Shown here one piece after another: positions 10,994 to 20,913 of a DNA stretch of 20,913 nt. Where the stretch lies: positions 85,373 through 106,285 of IMG/VR virus record IMGVR_UViG_3300044712_000982; one strand, given 5' to 3'. Source of the DNA: a virus. Within the stretch, counting starts at the first letter, position 1, and the number at the start of each line of letters is the position of its first letter. Both the position numbers and the translations under genes were made by a program. Below the pieces are notes generated by a model. It did not search any database. It was not told the DNA's origin and worked only from the letters and a program-made list of their open reading frames with translations.

Positions 10994-11000
10994 CTGTTGG

Positions 11001-11252
11001 TCAGGCTGTCTGCAATCTGCGGTTCCGGCGCTTCGGTGGCCCTTCGGGGCTGATCTCGTCGAGGTCGACGCCGAGGGCGTTTGCTATGGCTAGCCGTGTT
11101 GCCGGGAGTCCTTTGGTGACTCCGCTTTCCATGCGGCTGATGACGGTCGGGTCGAGGTTTGCCCTGCGGCCGAGTTCGGCCTGGGTCCATCCGTTGCGGA
11201 GTCTGGCGCGTTCGATGGCCTGCCCGTTGGTGAGTCCGGGTGCGATGGTCAT
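11001..11252 (-). CDS. Cro-like XRE HTH regulator B
   Basis: IERARLRNGWTQAELGRRANLDPTVISRMESG...IANALGVDLDEI; TAAGAT -10 box 6 nt before the ATG. Confidence 0.9.
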   Translation of the reverse strand: MTIAPGLTNGQAIERARLRNGWTQAELGRRANLDPTVISRMESGVTKGLPATRLAIANALGVDLDEISPEGPPKRRNRRLQTA

Positions 11253-11281
11253 GCATAGATCTTAGCAGGATCATGCATGAT
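11249..11281. promoter_or_regulatory. Operator pair TCATGCATRR in switch B
   Basis: ATCATGCATGAT perfect palindrome at 11270-11281; TCATGCATAG at 11249-11258 overlapping the cro start. Confidence 0.6.
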
Positions 11282-11362
11282 ATGCCGGTATCGGGCTGTA
11301 CTTTTCTGCACGATCCGGCAGCCTCTAGCACTTCACCCGTTCCGGTTGGCACGATCACCCGC

Positions 11363-11755
11363 ATGGACCGGAAAAGACTGGCAAATGCCGTAATTGCCCG
11401 TCGTGTCCAGCTTGGGCACCGGAGTCGAGAAGCCTTCGCCGAAGCCGCCGGCATCAGCCCACGCACCATCAGCTACATCGAGACCGGAGAGGATCGCAGG
11501 TACAACGCCTCAACCGTCGCCCAGCTTGAGCACGCCCTGAAGTGGGCGCCCGGCTCAGTCGCTCGGATCCTGGCCGGCGGCGACCCGATGCCGCTGCCCG
11601 ACAGTGCCCGGCCGATCCCCCCGCTCGCCGCGGAGTTGGCGGCGATGCTCGACCCTGACTCGCCCCTCACGCCCGAGGCGCGCGACTACCTCGGGCGGCT
11701 CGTGGACCTCGCCATGACCCCGCACCGGCAGGCGATGCGACGGAGGGACAACTAG
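11363..11755 (+). CDS. XRE/CI-like repressor B (actinophage immunity repressor type)
   Basis: RLANAVIARRVQLG..SREAFAEAAGISPRTISYIETG...LEHALKWAPGSVARILAGGDP. Confidence 0.9.
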   Translation: MDRKRLANAVIARRVQLGHRSREAFAEAAGISPRTISYIETGEDRRYNASTVAQLEHALKWAPGSVARILAGGDPMPLPDSARPIPPLAAELAAMLDPDSPLTPEARDYLGRLVDLAMTPHRQAMRRRDN

Positions 11756-12063
11756 CTGCGGCTATCTTTTCGGCGACGCGCCACTAATCAGGTTGACGTC
11801 TTTGCGCACGCACCGCATACTCGCATTTGCACGAACACTTACCCGATGAGTCGTTGTGACCAGGTGGCAGCCCGAGCAGACGCCGCGTTTGCGGCCGTCG
11901 TGCGCTGGGCAAAATCTGGTCGGCTCCGCCAACGTGATTCCGGCGGCCTTCGAAGCCAAGCGCGATCACATGGGTAGGTGGCGCGACTAGCGCAGCACAA
12001 CGCGCGAGCGCCGCCCACCCGAACCGGGTACGGGCGGCATTTCCAGTTTCCGACCAACTTCAT

Positions 12064-12137
12064 ATGGGCGTAGCTCAATCAGGTAGAGCGCTGGTCTCCA
12101 AAACCAGTCGTTGCGGGTTCAATTCCTGCCGCCCATG
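12064..12137 (+). tRNA. trnW: tRNA-Trp(CCA)
   Basis: Cloverleaf; CTGGT-CTCCAAA-ACCAG. Confidence 0.95.
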
Positions 12138-12172
12138 CGCAACAGCCCCAGCATGCTGGCGGCGCACGAACG

Positions 12173-12189
12173 TTGAGAACTCCACAGCG
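12173..12189 (+). promoter_or_regulatory. rrn-type boxA/CL2 antitermination-like motif TTGAGAACTCCACAGCG
   Basis: One mismatch to TTGAGAACTCAACAGCG, recalled from actinobacterial 16S rRNA leaders; preceded by the CCAGCATGCTGG hairpin. Confidence 0.6.
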
Positions 12190-12198
12190 GATGGCATT

Positions 12199-12271
12199 CG
12201 GGAATGACCGGCACGGTGACCGGGCCTGATTTGGGATCAGGACGCAGCGCGTTCGACTCGCGTATTCCCGA
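12199..12271 (+). tRNA. trnP: tRNA-Pro(TGG), G8/C14
   Basis: CCTGA-TTTGGGA-TCAGG; C1-G72, A73. Confidence 0.85.
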
Positions 12272-12275
12272 CGAT

Positions 12276-12348
12276 GGGGTTGTAGCTCAGTTGGTAGAGC
12301 GTCGGCTCGGCAGACCGAAGGCCGAGGGTTCGAGACCCTCCTTCTCCA
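12276..12348 (+). tRNA. trnA: tRNA-Ala(GGC), atypical (C33, two U-U acceptor mismatches)
   Basis: G3-U70, A73; loop TCGGCAG. Confidence 0.75.
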
Positions 12349-12356
12349 CGCATCAT

Positions 12357-12432
12357 GCCTCTCAAGCTCAGCCAGGTAGCAGCGCGCGGTTGAAGCCCGC
12401 GAGGATTCCGGGTTCGACCCCCGGGGGAGGCA
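12357..12432 (+). tRNA. trnF: tRNA-Phe(GAA)
   Basis: CGCGG-TTGAAGC-CCGCG; A8. Confidence 0.85.
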
Positions 12433-12440
12433 CGTTTCAT

Positions 12441-12517
12441 GGGCCGTCGGAGCAGATGGAACGCTCACCTCGTTCTCAGCGAGGAGAACACCGGTTCGAG
12501 CCCGGTACGGCCTGCCA
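12441..12517 (+). tRNA. trnE: tRNA-Glu(CTC), CCA encoded
   Basis: CCTCG-TTCTCAG-CGAGG. Confidence 0.9.
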
Positions 12518-12518
12518 C

Positions 12519-12591
12519 GCGGTCGTGGTGAACTCGGCGGACACATCAGTCTTCCAAACTGAGAAAGCGGGTTCGATGCCCGCCGGCCGCT
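12519..12591 (+). tRNA. trnG: tRNA-Gly(TCC)
   Basis: TCAGT-CTTCCAA-ACTGA; U73. Confidence 0.9.
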
Positions 12592-12596
12592 CTCGT

Positions 12597-12673
12597 TCCG
12601 GGGTACGGCGCTGGCGTCCGTGACCGCACTTTGAATGCGGAACCCGTAGGTTCGATTCCTGCACCCGGAGCCA
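12597..12673 (+). tRNA. trnQ: tRNA-Gln(TTG), CCA encoded, atypical D arm
   Basis: CCGCA-CTTTGAA-TGCGG; U1-A72. Confidence 0.85.
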
Positions 12674-12674
12674 T

Positions 12675-12748
12675 GCCGTGGTGGCCCAACCGGGAGAGGC
12701 GCTCCGTTCAAAGCGGAGAAGTTGGGGGTTCGAATCCCTCGCACGGCA
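12675..12748 (+). tRNA. trnL: tRNA-Leu(CAA), short variable loop
   Basis: CTCCG-TTCAAAG-CGGAG; 5-nt variable loop; A73. Confidence 0.85.
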
Positions 12749-12758
12749 CTCGTTCGAT

Positions 12759-12833
12759 GCGGCTGTAGCACAACGGTCAGTGCGTCGCCTTGCCATGGCG
12801 AAAACCGGGGTTCGACTCCCCGTAGCCGCTCCA
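12759..12833 (+). tRNA. trnG: tRNA-Gly(GCC), CCA encoded
   Basis: TCGCC-TTGCCAT-GGCGA. Confidence 0.95.
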
Positions 12834-12865
12834 CGTCCACCCTCAATGGCCAGGAGGTGTTTCCG

Positions 12866-13309
12866 GTGGACTCGGTACTTGTTCTCAACGCCGACCTCGG
12901 GCCGCTGCACCGGGTCAGCCTGCGCCACGCGATCCGGATGCTCTGCCGACAGGTGGCGGAGGTCCACGAATCGGAGCCCGACATACGCATCGGCGTGTTT
13001 CCGATGCCGCGGGTGGTGCGGCTCGTCGCGTACGTGGTGACCCGCTGGCGGTACAGCGCCGGCCCGGCGTGGTCGCGGACAGGTGTGCTCGCCCGTGACG
13101 GGCGGCGTTGCGGCTACTGTGGCAGTCCGGCAACCACGGTCGATCACATCCTCCCGCGGTCGCGGGGTGGCCGGAACGCCTGGAAGAACACGGTCGCCGC
13201 GTGTGGGCCGTGTAATCAGCGCAAGGGCGACAGGACCCCCATCGAAGCGCGGATGCCGCTGCGGGCCACCCCAGCGGCGCCGACCTGGGCCACGCTCGCC
13301 CAGCGCTAA
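12866..13309 (+). CDS. HNH endonuclease (HNH_5/McrA-like) embedded in the tRNA array
   Basis: AGGAGGT RBS, GTG at 12866; VLVLNAD N-terminus; RDGRRCGYCG..TVDHILPRSRGG...N.VAAC..CNQRKG. Confidence 0.92.
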   Translation: MDSVLVLNADLGPLHRVSLRHAIRMLCRQVAEVHESEPDIRIGVFPMPRVVRLVAYVVTRWRYSAGPAWSRTGVLARDGRRCGYCGSPATTVDHILPRSRGGRNAWKNTVAACGPCNQRKGDRTPIEARMPLRATPAAPTWATLAQR

Positions 13310-13374
13310 CGCTCAGAACCTCACGAGGATGGCCGGTGACGGCATGGGGTGACAGCCGGGAGAGACCGGCCCAT

Positions 13375-13446
13375 TCCCGGGTCGTCTAGCTGGTAGGACG
13401 CCGCGCTCTGAACGCGGAAGGCTGGGTTCGAATCCTGGCCCGGGAG
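13375..13446 (+). tRNA. trnQ: tRNA-Gln(CTG)
   Basis: CCGCG-CTCTGAA-CGCGG. Confidence 0.95.
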
Positions 13447-13459
13447 CGTTACCTCACAT

Positions 13460-13535
13460 GCCGGTGTAGCTCACGTTGGTTCCGAGCACCGCTCTTGTAA
13501 AGCGGAGAACGCTAGTTCGATTCTAGTCACCGGCT
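13460..13535 (+). tRNA. trnT: tRNA-Thr(TGT)
   Basis: CCGCT-CTTGTAA-AGCGG. Confidence 0.92.
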
Positions 13536-13539
13536 CTTC

Positions 13540-13613
13540 GGGCTCTTAGCTCATTTTGGTAGAGCACCTGTCTTGCAAACAGGAGGTGGCCGGTTCGAAA
13601 CCGGCAGGGTCCA
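13540..13613 (+). tRNA. trnA: tRNA-Ala(TGC)
   Basis: CCTGT-CTTGCAA-ACAGG; G3-U70. Confidence 0.95.
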
Positions 13614-13619
13614 CGTCAT

Positions 13620-13694
13620 GCCCGGGTAGCCCAAATGGTAGGAGGCGACTGGCTTAGAACCAGTTCAGTGCACGTTCGAATCGTGTTCCGGGTA
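13620..13694 (+). tRNA. trnL: tRNA-Leu(TAG), short variable loop
   Basis: ACTGG-CTTAGAA-CCAGT; 5-nt variable loop. Confidence 0.88.
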
Positions 13695-13698
13695 CTTT

Positions 13699-13771
13699 GC
13701 TGGCGTAGCTCAGTGGTTAGAGCGCCGGATTGTCAATCCGGAGGCCGCGGGTTCGAGTCCCGCCGTCGGCG
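13699..13771 (+). tRNA. trnD: tRNA-Asp(GTC)
   Basis: CCGGA-TTGTCAA-TCCGG; G73. Confidence 0.95.
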
Positions 13772-13775
13772 CGTT

Positions 13776-13864
13776 GGAGAGTTGGCCGAGTTGGTTTATG
13801 GCGCCGCACTGCTAATGCGGTTCGGGTAACACCGTCGTGGGTTCGAATCCCGCACTCTCCGCCA
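13776..13864 (+). tRNA. trnS: tRNA-Ser(GCT), CCA encoded
   Basis: CCGCA-CTGCTAA-TGCGG; long variable arm. Confidence 0.95.
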
Positions 13865-13865
13865 T

Positions 13866-13939
13866 GCCGTCGTGGCCCGCGTGGTAAGGGCGTCTCGCCG
13901 ATAACGAGAAGGTAGGGAGTTCGACTCTCCCCGACGGTA
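13866..13939 (+). tRNA. trnI: tRNA-Ile(GAT), C33
   Basis: TCTCG-CCGATAA-CGAGA. Confidence 0.88.
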
Positions 13940-13943
13940 CTTT

Positions 13944-14016
13944 GCCCCCGTAGCTCAATGGATGGAGCAGCGGCCTACGAAGCCGTGGTATGCGAGTTCG
14001 AATCTCGCCGGGGGTG
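13944..14016 (+). tRNA. trnR: tRNA-Arg(ACG)
   Basis: GCGGC-CTACGAA-GCCGT. Confidence 0.95.
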
Positions 14017-14021
14017 CGTTT

Positions 14022-14099
14022 CGGGATGTAGCTCAGCTTGGTCAGAGCACGCGGCTGGGGGCCGCGGGGCCGCCGGTTCGAATCCGACCATCCCGACCA
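14022..14099 (+). tRNA. trnP: tRNA-Pro(GGG), CCA encoded
   Basis: CGCGG-CTGGGGG-CCGCG. Confidence 0.92.
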
Positions 14100-14100
14100 G

Positions 14101-14174
14101 CGGGTACTAGCTCAACTTGGTGGAGCGCGCGGTCCGGGGCCGCGAGGATGGGCGTTCGAATCGCCCGTACCCGA
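14101..14174 (+). tRNA. trnP: tRNA-Pro(CGG), C33
   Basis: CGCGG-TCCGGGG-CCGCG. Confidence 0.88.
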
Positions 14175-14178
14175 CTGT

Positions 14179-14262
14179 GGAGGGTGGCGCCATGGTGGCA
14201 AACCGGTCTTGAAAACCGTGCCGGGGTAACGCCCGAGGGTTCGATTCCTTCACCCTCCTCCA
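14179..14262 (+). tRNA. trnS: tRNA-Ser(TGA), CCA encoded, atypical D arm
   Basis: CGGT-CTTGAAA-ACCG; long variable arm. Confidence 0.85.
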
Positions 14263-14263
14263 C

Positions 14264-14334
14264 GCGCCGCTAGCTGAGTGGTTTAGCACCGGACTCTTAA
14301 TCCGGGGAGGAAGGTTCGATCCCTTCGCGGCGTA
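14264..14334 (+). tRNA. trnK: tRNA-Lys(CTT)
   Basis: CCGGA-CTCTTAA-TCCGG. Confidence 0.92.
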
Positions 14335-14339
14335 CGTTT

Positions 14340-14412
14340 CCCTCGGCAGCTCGACGGAACGAGCAACGGACTTCTAAGCCGCTGGTTGCCGGTTCGATTC
14401 CGGCCCGAGGGA
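14340..14412 (+). tRNA. trnR: tRNA-Arg(TCT), weak anticodon stem, C8/G14
   Basis: ACGGA-CTTCTAA-GCCGC. Confidence 0.8.
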
Positions 14413-14418
14413 CTCTCT

Positions 14419-14490
14419 CTCCCGCTAGCTCAACGGACAGAGCGCCACCCTCCTAAGGTGGATGTCCACGTTCGAATCGTGGGCGGGAGA
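14419..14490 (+). tRNA. trnR: tRNA-Arg(CCT)
   Basis: CCACC-CTCCTAA-GGTGG. Confidence 0.93.
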
Positions 14491-14495
14491 CTTAT

Positions 14496-14567
14496 GCGCC
14501 GTTAGCTCAGAGGTAGAGCTGCCGCCTTTTAAGCGGAGTGTCGCAGGTTCGAGCCCTGCACGGCGTA
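14496..14567 (+). tRNA. trnK: tRNA-Lys(TTT)
   Basis: CCGC-CTTTTAA-GCGG. Confidence 0.93.
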
Positions 14568-14568
14568 C

Positions 14569-14642
14569 TGCGGGTGTGGTGGAGTGGAACCACGCTGGGC
14601 TCATAACCCGGAGACGCCGTTCGAATCGGACACCCGCCACCA
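14569..14642 (+). tRNA. trnM: Initiator-type tRNA-fMet(CAT), CCA encoded, imperfect T stem
   Basis: CTGGG-CTCATAA-CCCGG (three G-C pairs); 1:72 U-C mismatch. Confidence 0.82.
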
Positions 14643-14714
14643 CGCGCGTTCGACTATGGGTTAGGTTGCGAAGCTTTCACCTTCGCGGAACGGGTTCGAG
14701 TCCCGTACGCGCGA
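14643..14714 (+). tRNA. trnE: tRNA-Glu(TTC)
   Basis: CGAAG-CTTTCAC-CTTCG; starts immediately after the CCA of fMet. Confidence 0.9.
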
Positions 14715-14718
14715 CTAT

Positions 14719-14793
14719 TCCGGTGTCGCCCAATTCGGTAGGGCAACGCACTGTTAATGCGTACAGGTGCAGGTTCGAGTCCTGCCACCGGAG
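14719..14793 (+). tRNA. trnN: tRNA-Asn(GTT)
   Basis: ACGCA-CTGTTAA-TGCGT. Confidence 0.95.
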
Positions 14794-14797
14794 CTTC

Positions 14798-14872
14798 GCG
14801 TCGGAGTCCATCTGGTTGGTGGAGACCGTCTTATAAACGGTGTGTGGCTGGGTTCAATTCCCGCGCGGCGCA
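14798..14872 (+). tRNA. trnI: tRNA-Ile(TAT), atypical
   Basis: ACCGT-CTTATAA-ACGGT; A8/U14, bulged T stem, A73. Confidence 0.75.
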
Positions 14873-14877
14873 CCTAT

Positions 14878-14950
14878 GCCCGTGTAGCTCAGTTGGTGGA
14901 GCGGCTGCCTTACAAGCAGCGGGATGCAGGTTCGAATCCTGTCGCGGGTA
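14878..14950 (+). tRNA. trnV: tRNA-Val(TAC)
   Basis: GCTGC-CTTACAA-GCAGC. Confidence 0.95.
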
Positions 14951-14952
14951 CT

Positions 14953-15026
14953 GTGACTGTAGCTCAATGGTAGAGCGCTGGATTGTGGCTCCAGCGATGC
15001 CGGTTCAATTCCGGTCGGTCACCCCA
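14953..15026 (+). tRNA. trnH: tRNA-His(GTG), CCA encoded, no genomic G-1
   Basis: CTGGA-TTGTGGC-TCCAG; C73; base -1 is T. Confidence 0.93.
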
Positions 15027-15027
15027 A

Positions 15028-15112
15028 GTCCGTCGTGAGCATTGGTCAGCTCGGCAGTCTGTAAAACTGTCGCCTTGCGGCTGATCCGGTTCGAATCCGG
15101 GGGCGGGCACCA
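15028..15112 (+). tRNA. trnY: tRNA-Tyr(GTA), CCA encoded
   Basis: GCAGT-CTGTAAA-ACTGT; long variable arm. Confidence 0.9.
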
Positions 15113-15113
15113 A

Positions 15114-15185
15114 GTCTTCGTAGCGCAGCGGAAGCGCGCGGCCCTCCGAAGGCCGAGGTCGCTGGTTCGAATCCAGTCGGGGACG
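15114..15185 (+). tRNA. trnR: tRNA-Arg(CCG)
   Basis: CGGCC-CTCCGAA-GGCCG. Confidence 0.93.
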
Positions 15186-15186
15186 C

Positions 15187-15417
15187 TCACGGCTCGGTGT
15201 CGTTGCGGGTGCAGCGGCCGGTCTGCAAAACCGGATTCTCTCGGGTTCGACTCCCGGCCGAGCCTCTATGCCGTCTGCTGTGGATTTTGCGCTGGCGGGT
15301 CGGCTGCCCAGTCGCCATCGCCCGTGCGACCAGCGCGGCCCGGTCGGCCTCCGGGTCTCCGGTCCAGTCGTCGTACCGGCTTGAGAGTGGGCTTGTATCG
15401 CGTTCGCTGGTGCTCAC
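15187..15417 (-). CDS. Hypothetical protein, 3' end antisense to tRNA-Cys (possibly truncated)
   Basis: GGAGGGG RBS; GTG overlaps the upstream TAG. Confidence 0.5.
   Translation of the reverse strand: MSTSERDTSPLSSRYDDWTGDPEADRAALVARAMATGQPTRQRKIHSRRHRGSAGSRTRENPVLQTGRCTRNDTEP
15191..15265 (+). tRNA. trnC: tRNA-Cys(GCA), extended D stem
   Basis: CCGGT-CTGCAAA-ACCGG; U73. Confidence 0.88.
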
Positions 15418-15815
15418 TAGCTATCCCCTCCTGCTGTTGCGTAGATCTTCGGCGAGTCGAGGCGCGGCTTTCCGTGCACCGTCTCACCCCCGTACCGCAG
15501 GTGCCCCTGCTCGACGAGCTGGCCGATGATCTGCCGGCGACGCTCCGGCGAGCACTCGGCGACGGACGGTATGTCGCGGGCTATCTCCCGCAACGTCACG
15601 CCGTCCGGGCGGGCTGCGGCGTACGCGACGACGGCTGCGGCGCGGTCGCCGATCGGCGCAGGCTTGGCGCCGGCTGCCTGGATCTCATCCCACGCGGCCA
15701 CCAGCGCCGCGTGCTGCTCCTCCATCCGCTCCACCTCGCGGGCGAGCTGCAACAGGTGGTCACGGTTGATCACGCGCGGCTCGACGGCGCGGCGGATCTG
15801 GTCGGCGAGGCTCAT
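15417..15815 (-). CDS. Protein with C-terminal winged-HTH-like domain
   Basis: GGAG RBS; GVTLREIARDI...RRQIIGQLVEQGHL. Confidence 0.7.
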   Translation of the reverse strand: MSLADQIRRAVEPRVINRDHLLQLAREVERMEEQHAALVAAWDEIQAAGAKPAPIGDRAAAVVAYAAARPDGVTLREIARDIPSVAECSPERRRQIIGQLVEQGHLRYGGETVHGKPRLDSPKIYATAGGDS

Positions 15816-15839
15816 CGGAGCTCCAATCGGGTTGGGTGG

Positions 15840-15986
15840 TCAGGCTGCGTTCTCGGCGCGGTGGACCCGTGCTGCCGCGCGGGCCTCAGAGCGGCTTTCG
15901 GCATGGCTCTTCCAGCCGCACGAACATCTGGCGGTGCTGTTCTCGCTGCGCACGTGCCGGCCGCATGAGCCGTTCGACTTGGTCAC
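15840..15986 (-). CDS. Possible small Zn-finger protein (CSCGW...H); start uncertain
   Basis: ARCSCGWKS...AAARVHR motif; a competing + strand frame is also open. Confidence 0.4.
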   Translation of the reverse strand: MTKSNGSCGRHVRSENSTARCSCGWKSHAESRSEARAAARVHRAENAA

Positions 15987-16116
15987 GTACCGCTCGCTCT
16001 GGTGCGCCCGCGTCACCGGCCGCGGCGATGCTGCGGACGTCACGCTGTTCGGCGGACACGCCGTCGGCCAGGCCATCGCCAGCCTGTTCCTCGGCCGGGG
16101 ACTCGCCCGCAACGCC

Positions 16117-20786: not shown

Positions 20787-20913
20787 GCTCGGTGCTCGGT
20801 GCTCGGTGCTCGGTGCTCGGTGCTCGGTGCTCGGTGCTCGGTGCTCGGTGCTCGGTGCTCGGTGCTCGGTGCTCGGTGCTCGGTGCTCGGTGCTCGGTGC
20901 TCGGTGCTCGGTG
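20787..20913. repeat. Perfect heptanucleotide tandem repeat (GCTCGGT)n, at least 18 copies, runs off the window
   Basis: Directly visible. Confidence 0.97.

Follow-up and report, generated by a model that had tools for sequence, protein, structure and literature searches.

Organization of the tRNA array and its setting

The stretch of DNA analyzed in this study (hereafter the window; 20,913 nucleotides) forms the final 21 kb of a complete virus record of 106,285 bp, in which direct terminal repeats and a terminase gene are present. It carries an array of 33 tRNA genes, all on the + strand, comprising 32 genes identified by ARAGORN (12064-15186) and tRNA-Cys (15191-15264), together with an HNH endonuclease gene and a set of leader and trailer elements (Table 1). 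For the tRNA-Cys gene, the top-scoring model was that of tRNA-Sec; in most relatives, a Cys gene closes the enclosed block. An Rfam scan of the window returned tRNA families only, and GOLLD RNA was absent. Actinobacterial array units with about 30 co-oriented tRNA genes and an internal HNH gene, as found here, have been described on phages, plasmids, and chromosomes, on which they spread (PMC5966550; PMC6582537); neither paper mentions antitermination, and the main text of the first does not mention boxA, nor that of the second RNase III. The tRNA-Ile of the window with a TAT anticodon (14798-14874) belongs to a rare type that is reported from Mycobacterium clusters too (PMC6582537).

Table 1. 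Features at the tRNA array, in window coordinates.
Feature	Position	Strand	Remark
Candidate promoter of the array (sigma-70-like site)	11793..11821	+	weak
Leader ORF of 44 codons, candidate attenuator peptide	11856..11990	+	GTG start, ends G-R-W-R-D-stop; conserved frame
Antiterminator strand within the last leader codons	11972..11983	+	can pair with the 5' terminator arm
G+C hairpin resembling a terminator, short T run	12010..12042	+	21 nt before tRNA-Trp
tRNA-Trp(CCA), opens the array, not enclosed by the stem	12064..12138	+	directly precedes motif 1 in most arrays
Small hairpin in boxB position	12145..12163 (core 12148-12159)	+	fold prediction
BoxA-like core TTGAGAAC, mostly unpaired	12173..12180	+	conserved; same bases as host rrn leader and spacer
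Leader arm of the stem	12181..12197	+	columns 8-24; most similar to the arm of the host pre-23S stem
32 stem-enclosed tRNA genes	12199..15264	+	31 by ARAGORN plus Cys (Rfam, relaxed ARAGORN)
HNH endonuclease gene (HNH_5), within the array	12866..13309	+	PF14279, E 1.6e-13
Separate phage RNA element, motif 2 being its 5' part	13308..13370	+	recurrence in other loci
tRNA-Cys(GCA), last enclosed gene	15191-15264	+	Rfam and relaxed ARAGORN; overlooked by default ARAGORN
Trailer arm of the stem, 3 nt past tRNA-Cys	15268..15284	+	17 contiguous pairs with 12181-12197

Relatives of the array were gathered through the HNH_5 gene. Its nearest relatives were found on Micromonosporaceae chromosomes and on viral contigs of approximately 100 kb, which points to a soil actinomycete, a member of the Micromonosporaceae, as the probable host of the phage. 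Several neighboring features were recorded along with the array. An isolated tRNA-Ala(GGC) gene beyond the window (G000:C1:82803-82876), located about 14.6 kb before the array and sharing its anticodon with the tRNA-Ala of the array, could represent an attachment site. Two divergent helix-turn-helix genes (11001-11252 on the - strand and 11363-11755 on the + strand), resembling a cro/repressor pair, adjoin the array leader upstream. Immediately after the trailer, a G+C-rich hairpin region without a T run (15285-15345), which faces a convergent gene (15417-15815, - strand), is a possible transcript end. A 7-base unit repeated in a long tandem run occupies the end of the window (approximately 20840-20913) and the start of the genome, that is, the junction of the ends of the record.

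The boxA-like core and the leader-trailer stem

The initial annotation had located a hairpin and a boxA-like sequence (motif 1, 12169-12195) in a long spacer after tRNA-Trp, and a related sequence (motif 2, 13308-13333) at the end of the HNH gene. All three lie where they had been placed, and the spacer is present as well (12139-12198), its measured length being 60 nt. Neither motif matched an Rfam family. The proposal that the motif is conserved in homologous arrays was borne out for motif 1, which stands at the head of 45 distinct arrays. These are located on Micromonosporaceae chromosomes, on viral contigs, and on one Frondihabitans plasmid, and motif 1 usually lies 27-53 nt past tRNA-Trp, behind a small hairpin. 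It also heads plasmid arrays of Mycolicibacterium, Nonomuraea, Frondihabitans, and Arthrobacter, and in those of Mycolicibacterium and Nonomuraea, it was found together with the stem described below (motif 1 plus stem, hereafter the bracket). All HNH-linked arrays with at least 10 tRNA genes possess motif 1 save three, one of which is truncated at its start (L002), the others being among the most divergent viral loci (L088 and L091). An independent pattern scan of viral sequences returned 27 matches; approximately half were located immediately past the first tRNA gene of an array, and about half of the exact matches had no tRNA genes nearby. Motif 1 was absent from the array of Streptomyces phage FlowerPower and from short Dactylosporangium clusters. 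The latter (L005, L007, L018, and others) are HNH-linked clusters of 3-7 tRNA genes that lack the bracket, which was possibly lost as the arrays shrank; in the genome of L005, two further arrays (L127 and L129) do have it.

Conservation within motif 1 is uneven. In the core (columns 0-7, TTGARAAY), both T residues are invariant (45/45), and the G and the three A residues occur in 41, 40, 44, and 43 arrays, respectively; four arrays have the core changed to TTCTC. Alignment over the 12 nt of classical boxA showed that the pyrimidine-rich 5' half (columns -6 to -1) varies except for one G (33/45); the window agrees with the 12-mer boxA of the Micromonospora leader at 8/12 positions, and the host copies vary in their 5' half as well. 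Each core column is paired in just 6-23 of the 36 arrays with an ungapped trailer. Such conservation of mostly unpaired bases suggests a protein site, and its position behind a hairpin fits the boxB-boxA order. The hairpin was predicted in 36/36 of these arrays, with variable sequence and a median z of only -1.3, so that individual predictions are weak.

Actinobacterial rrn leaders carry the boxA/CL2 motif, which is bound by NusB-NusE. As the initial annotation had anticipated, host-type rrn operons contain the motif in both leaders and 16S-23S spacers: each of the five Micromonosporaceae genomes compared has three copies in leaders, 134-153 nt before the 16S gene, and a further three in spacers, about 2 kb on and before the 23S gene. 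Motif 1 agrees with the leader copy at 14/15 positions and with the spacer copy at 13/15 in these five genomes from the family of the probable host; all other sites in the 106-kb phage genome differ from the leader 15-mer by at least three mismatches. Over 25 nt, the matrix of the array family scored the spacer copy at 23.4 bits and the leader copy at 2.6 bits. The leader copy pairs with a segment 160-170 nt past the end of the 16S gene, and the spacer copy pairs past the 23S gene (four operons); the two copies provide the 5' strands of the processing stems of 16S and 23S rRNA. By sequence comparison, motif 1 is nearest to the 16S-23S spacer copy, the 5' arm of the 23S stem.

The initial reading of the sequence had overlooked the partner of motif 1, a trailer at 15268-15284 that pairs with 12181-12197. 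The stem comprises 17 contiguous pairs, including three G-U pairs, and encloses 32 tRNA genes and the HNH gene; the trailer is the best downstream partner of the leader arm, with a predicted energy of -41.2 kcal/mol compared to -32.6 for the next. A trailer without gaps was found in 36/45 arrays, in 31 of them within -6 to +9 nt of a tRNA end, with leader-trailer spans of 1.1 to 8.7 kb. Of the other nine arrays, three have a partner that is gapped or partial, four belong to loci whose sequence stops at the last tRNA gene or shortly past it, and two (L046 and L052) show no trailer, although their array ends apparently lie within the examined sequence. Motif 1 can also form an upstream duplex at 11181 (-44.9 kcal/mol), but its partner there falls within the region of the divergent cro-like gene, ahead of the candidate promoter, and the pairing was not seen in relatives; we took it as chance.

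Each stem column (8-24) is paired in 30-36 of the 36 arrays. Arms paired with their own partners in 527/540 cells, compared to a maximum of 507 over 5000 partner swaps, and among 41 leader changes, scattered over the HNH tree, 38 leave the position paired, 37 of them with the partner changed; in both the swap tests and the change counts, related rows inflate significance. Compensatory changes also occur in distant lineages (L083, L084, L131, and L160). One-sided changes in the trailer over columns 8-24 gave 29 G-U compared to 8-9 A-C combinations, an excess that favors RNA of the + strand over a DNA repeat. Based on these comparisons, the tRNA block is almost certainly surrounded by an RNA leader-trailer stem.

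Seventeen of the 25 conserved bases form the stem arm, so that much of the rrn match would reflect mimicry of the stem, not of boxA alone. The same figure agrees with an explanation in which the stem is all that was taken over: a processing or stability stalk copied from the 23S stem, its core serving a nuclease or another RNA-binding protein and not Nus antitermination. This explanation also accommodates the unconserved 5' half of classical boxA; in B. subtilis, rRNA antitermination has not been directly shown (PMC13753749), and we found no test of it in actinomycetes in the open literature. We nevertheless consider it improbable, because the core is conserved without a partner, follows a hairpin at the operon head as in boxB-boxA, and has the bases of the host motif. 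RNase III recognizes double strands, and a conserved core that is unpaired is not explained by it.

The arms might instead be inverted repeats in DNA, either marks of a mobile tRNA cassette or the site of a dimeric DNA-binding protein. They do flank a horizontally spread cassette with an HNH gene, and co-variation alone would fit DNA equally well; however, G-U combinations outnumber A-C about threefold, the sequence is that of the host rRNA stem arm, and tRNA-Trp, the terminator, and the leader ORF travel with the array yet lie outside the repeats, which makes this explanation very improbable. Similarly remote is the idea that the bracket is a functionless leftover of an ancestral rRNA operon. 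The close match to the host spacer and the loss of the bracket in some short clusters could be read in this way, but compensatory changes have arisen in many lineages, and four actinobacterial orders conserve the bracket while the adjoining spacers diverge.

Sequences resembling motif 1 were also encountered away from tRNA arrays. In Mycobacterium phage Phantastic, a site on the minus strand about 500 nt from the right end (L179:497-526) lies in the non-coding leader of a long leftward transcript and may pair locally with a sequence about 270 nt further on; we regard it as a candidate boxA-like site, and approximately 30 mycobacteriophage records gave weak BLAST matches at the equivalent place. 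Intergenic sites with no tRNA genes nearby were found in two Micromonosporaceae chromosomes and a Streptomyces plasmid (L128:1023, L130:1032, and L159:9001), in the plasmid ahead of a run of hypothetical genes, and the site in L130 has a possible pairing partner 3.2 kb downstream. A match in Streptomyces phage BRock, obtained with a 36-mer BLAST search against phages, lies within a structural gene and was taken as chance.

The RNA element behind the HNH gene

Motif 2 overlaps the TAA stop codon of the HNH gene (13307-13309). The identity reported in the initial annotation between the two motifs (21/27 with one gap) is correct, and motif 2 is the best second match to motif 1 in the genome. Such a likeness is unlikely at random, a Markov simulation giving about 0.002 matches of this quality per 3.2 kb (an estimate that rests on just five events in 10 Mb, with boundaries set afterwards), and rrn operons carry two copies of the motif. 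Both observations speak for the earlier two-site reading, in which Nus factors load at one boxA and are reloaded at another as ribosomes leave the HNH gene. Against the matrix of the array leaders, however, motif 2 scored approximately 0 bits with a gap and -32 without, compared to 44.5 for motif 1, and it alters three positions that are invariant in 45/45 leaders, so that it does not qualify as a repeat of the boxA signal. No second copy was detected after the HNH gene or anywhere in the array in any of the relatives examined, which have a G+C hairpin after HNH. With motif 2 off consensus and no second copy in relatives, the proposed reloading is unsupported, and we regard the two-site reading as highly unlikely.

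What follows the HNH gene is, judged by its recurrence, a distinct small phage RNA element inserted there (13308-13370), not a boxA. It comprises a predicted stem (ACCTCA/TGGGGT) with a variable interior, followed by GACA and a G+C hairpin at 13355-13370. A nearly identical sequence occurs past tRNA-Pro, and not past HNH, in L087, and with no tRNA gene within 400 nt in L176; its 3' module was found in 16 viral contigs, most of which have a short pairable 5' strand with an unrelated interior. It is this recurrence within a different element and away from HNH that marks 13308-13370 as separate, and one related soil contig has position 13313 changed and 13315 missing. Motif 2 may resemble motif 1 by chance or through distant common ancestry. 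Rfam returned nothing meaningful for the element up to E 10, and none of 17 related loci reached a gathering score; a resemblance to phage antisense RNAs of the C4/CI type was also considered and found no support in Rfam. Elements of this type (in the window, L087, and L161-L177) are widespread and unannotated, and one also lies between tRNA genes of Microcystis phage Mwe-JY26.

The upstream leader and a proposed model of array expression

The promoter-like site ahead of the array (11793-11821) was the sole match in 11000-16000, with a chance expectation of 0.6. Downstream of it, a leader ORF is conserved in frame: among 43 arrays, an in-frame ATG stands 37-47 codons before the stop codon in 32, compared to two and two in the other frames, and internal stops are missing in 42, compared to 23 and 17. 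A conserved GGAG upstream serves as the ribosome-binding site, and the stop codon lies 19-30 nt ahead of a terminator-like hairpin, which is present in 43/45 arrays, mostly 11-33 nt ahead of the first tRNA gene; because the hairpin abuts this gene, there is no room for a promoter between them. In the window, the T run of the hairpin is weak, and the hairpin was not called in the terminator scan. The leader ORF with its terminator and antiterminator strands (11856-12042) was seen before approximately 40 related arrays.

The predicted antiterminator strand pairs with its own terminator arm at a mean of -21.1 kcal/mol, compared to -18.5 for swapped arms (best of 5000 swaps, -19.7) and -10.3 for control segments, and it outperforms all 10 control segments in 35/43 arrays; the minimum free energy fold of the whole region is the antiterminator fold in only 7/43 arrays, the window included. 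The leader ORF of the window uses 35 distinct codons for 19 amino acids in 43 codons, which exceeds all 258 samples taken from long phage ORFs (mean 25). Leader codons are read by tRNAs of their own array in 58% of cases compared to 54% after swapping, and none of 3000 swaps equaled this value, although the effect is small and the rows are related. Taken as a whole, these comparisons argue for a ribosome-sensing attenuator upstream of the array, which we consider probable. The boxA-like core lies downstream of the terminator and therefore cannot be what lifts it. An internal promoter with the TTGAGA hexamer of motif 1, which resembles TTGACA, as its -35 box could provide the bypass that this terminator would call for, but we dismiss this idea, since no conserved -10 box lies 16-18 nt downstream (last-position T in 5/45 with a 16-nt spacer), the would-be spacer is itself conserved and pairs with the trailer, and the site was not called in the promoter scan.

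Comparison of the arrays shows a common anatomy of hairpin, TTGARAAY core, 17-nt arm, and trailer with its predicted pairings, and from it we infer the protein steps that follow. We favor, with some confidence, a model in which a single long RNA is made from the array, organized like the pre-23S unit of the host and served by host Nus and processing factors. Ribosomes on the leader ORF would decide whether the array is transcribed: when the ORF is finished, the terminator would form, and when ribosomes are slow, polymerase would read through. Past the terminator, polymerase would make tRNA-Trp, the hairpin, and boxA in turn. The unpaired core would act as boxA, at which the host Nus complex (NusB-S10, NusA, and NusG) would load once, at the head of the array and with no reloading past HNH, and such loading appears probable on comparative grounds. 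Polymerase so equipped would be fast and Rho-resistant across 3 kb of mostly untranslated RNA, and the leader arm, tethered near polymerase, would close the stem once the trailer is made. The stem would then form a processing or stabilizing stalk that host RNase III might cut, and the released tRNA block would be converted to tRNAs by RNase P and exonuclease trimming of 3' ends. Genes encoding NusB and RNase III were found in relatives of the likely host, and no match to RNase III was detected in the phage genome. RNase III cleavage is uncertain because, at about 17 bp, the array stem falls short of the host stems with their about 30 pairs, and we consider the chances for and against it to be even. 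The position of tRNA-Trp outside the stem counts against the model.

The proposed organization resembles that of rrn operons, in which a hairpin and a boxA-like sequence are followed by a strand whose pairing partner, the trailer, lies about 3 kb downstream (PMC10250234), and its sequence is nearly identical to the Micromonosporaceae rrn spacer copy. Delivery of the leader to the trailer by boxA anchoring is the published rrn model (PMC10250234), and boxA-like RNA of the Gram-positive B. subtilis is bound by NusB (PMC13753749). In contrast to an rrn operon, the array is carried by a phage, encloses 32 tRNA genes and an HNH gene without any rRNA, has a single copy of the motif and the shorter stem, keeps its core unpaired while the host core is largely paired, and is gated by a terminator behind a leader ORF. 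Since it encloses no rRNA, the array would work like a pre-23S unit but is not one. A boxA outside rrn operons is known from gammaproteobacterial CRISPR arrays and from suhB (PMC13753749; PMC5725501). The array would be similar to these systems and to lambda nut in recruiting host Nus factors to transcripts other than rRNA, and differs from them in phylum and consensus. In CRISPR arrays, boxA protects long untranslated RNA; we know of no leader-trailer stem at the boxA sites of CRISPR arrays, suhB, or lambda nut. In the open literature, we found no account of tRNA arrays that carry a boxA or a stem joining their two ends.

Leader-peptide attenuators such as trpL, hisL, and ilvL consist of a short ORF whose end overlaps an antiterminator strand, followed by a terminator. 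The array leader shares the short ORF ending on the antiterminator strand and the mutually exclusive pairings of terminator and antiterminator, but it controls tRNA genes, and its ORF is diverse in codons and not rich in one amino acid. In Anabaena, a mobile replicon carries the trn operon, a long set of accessory tRNA genes that is induced by translational stress under the repressor TrcR (PMC10272220). The phage array may similarly be switched on when translation is impaired; it differs from the Anabaena operon, which is under TrcR control and for which neither boxA nor an attenuator is mentioned (PMC10272220).

The expression, regulation, and processing of large tRNA arrays of phages and plasmids are poorly understood, as are the reasons for their maintenance. 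A conserved boxA-like site, a co-varying stem, and a likely attenuator provide the exact bases to mutate, in cultured Micromonospora, Catellatospora, and Mycolicibacterium. If the model holds, rRNA-type antitermination and processing would extend to non-rRNA cargo in actinobacteria. The array also offers a non-essential substrate for asking whether actinobacterial boxA works and whether Nus factors aid the closure of long-range stems. In a broader and more tentative proposal, mobile actinobacterial tRNA arrays might mimic rRNA operons in general, combining a codon-sampling attenuator, a Nus boxA, and RNase III excision with a trailer 1-9 kb away.
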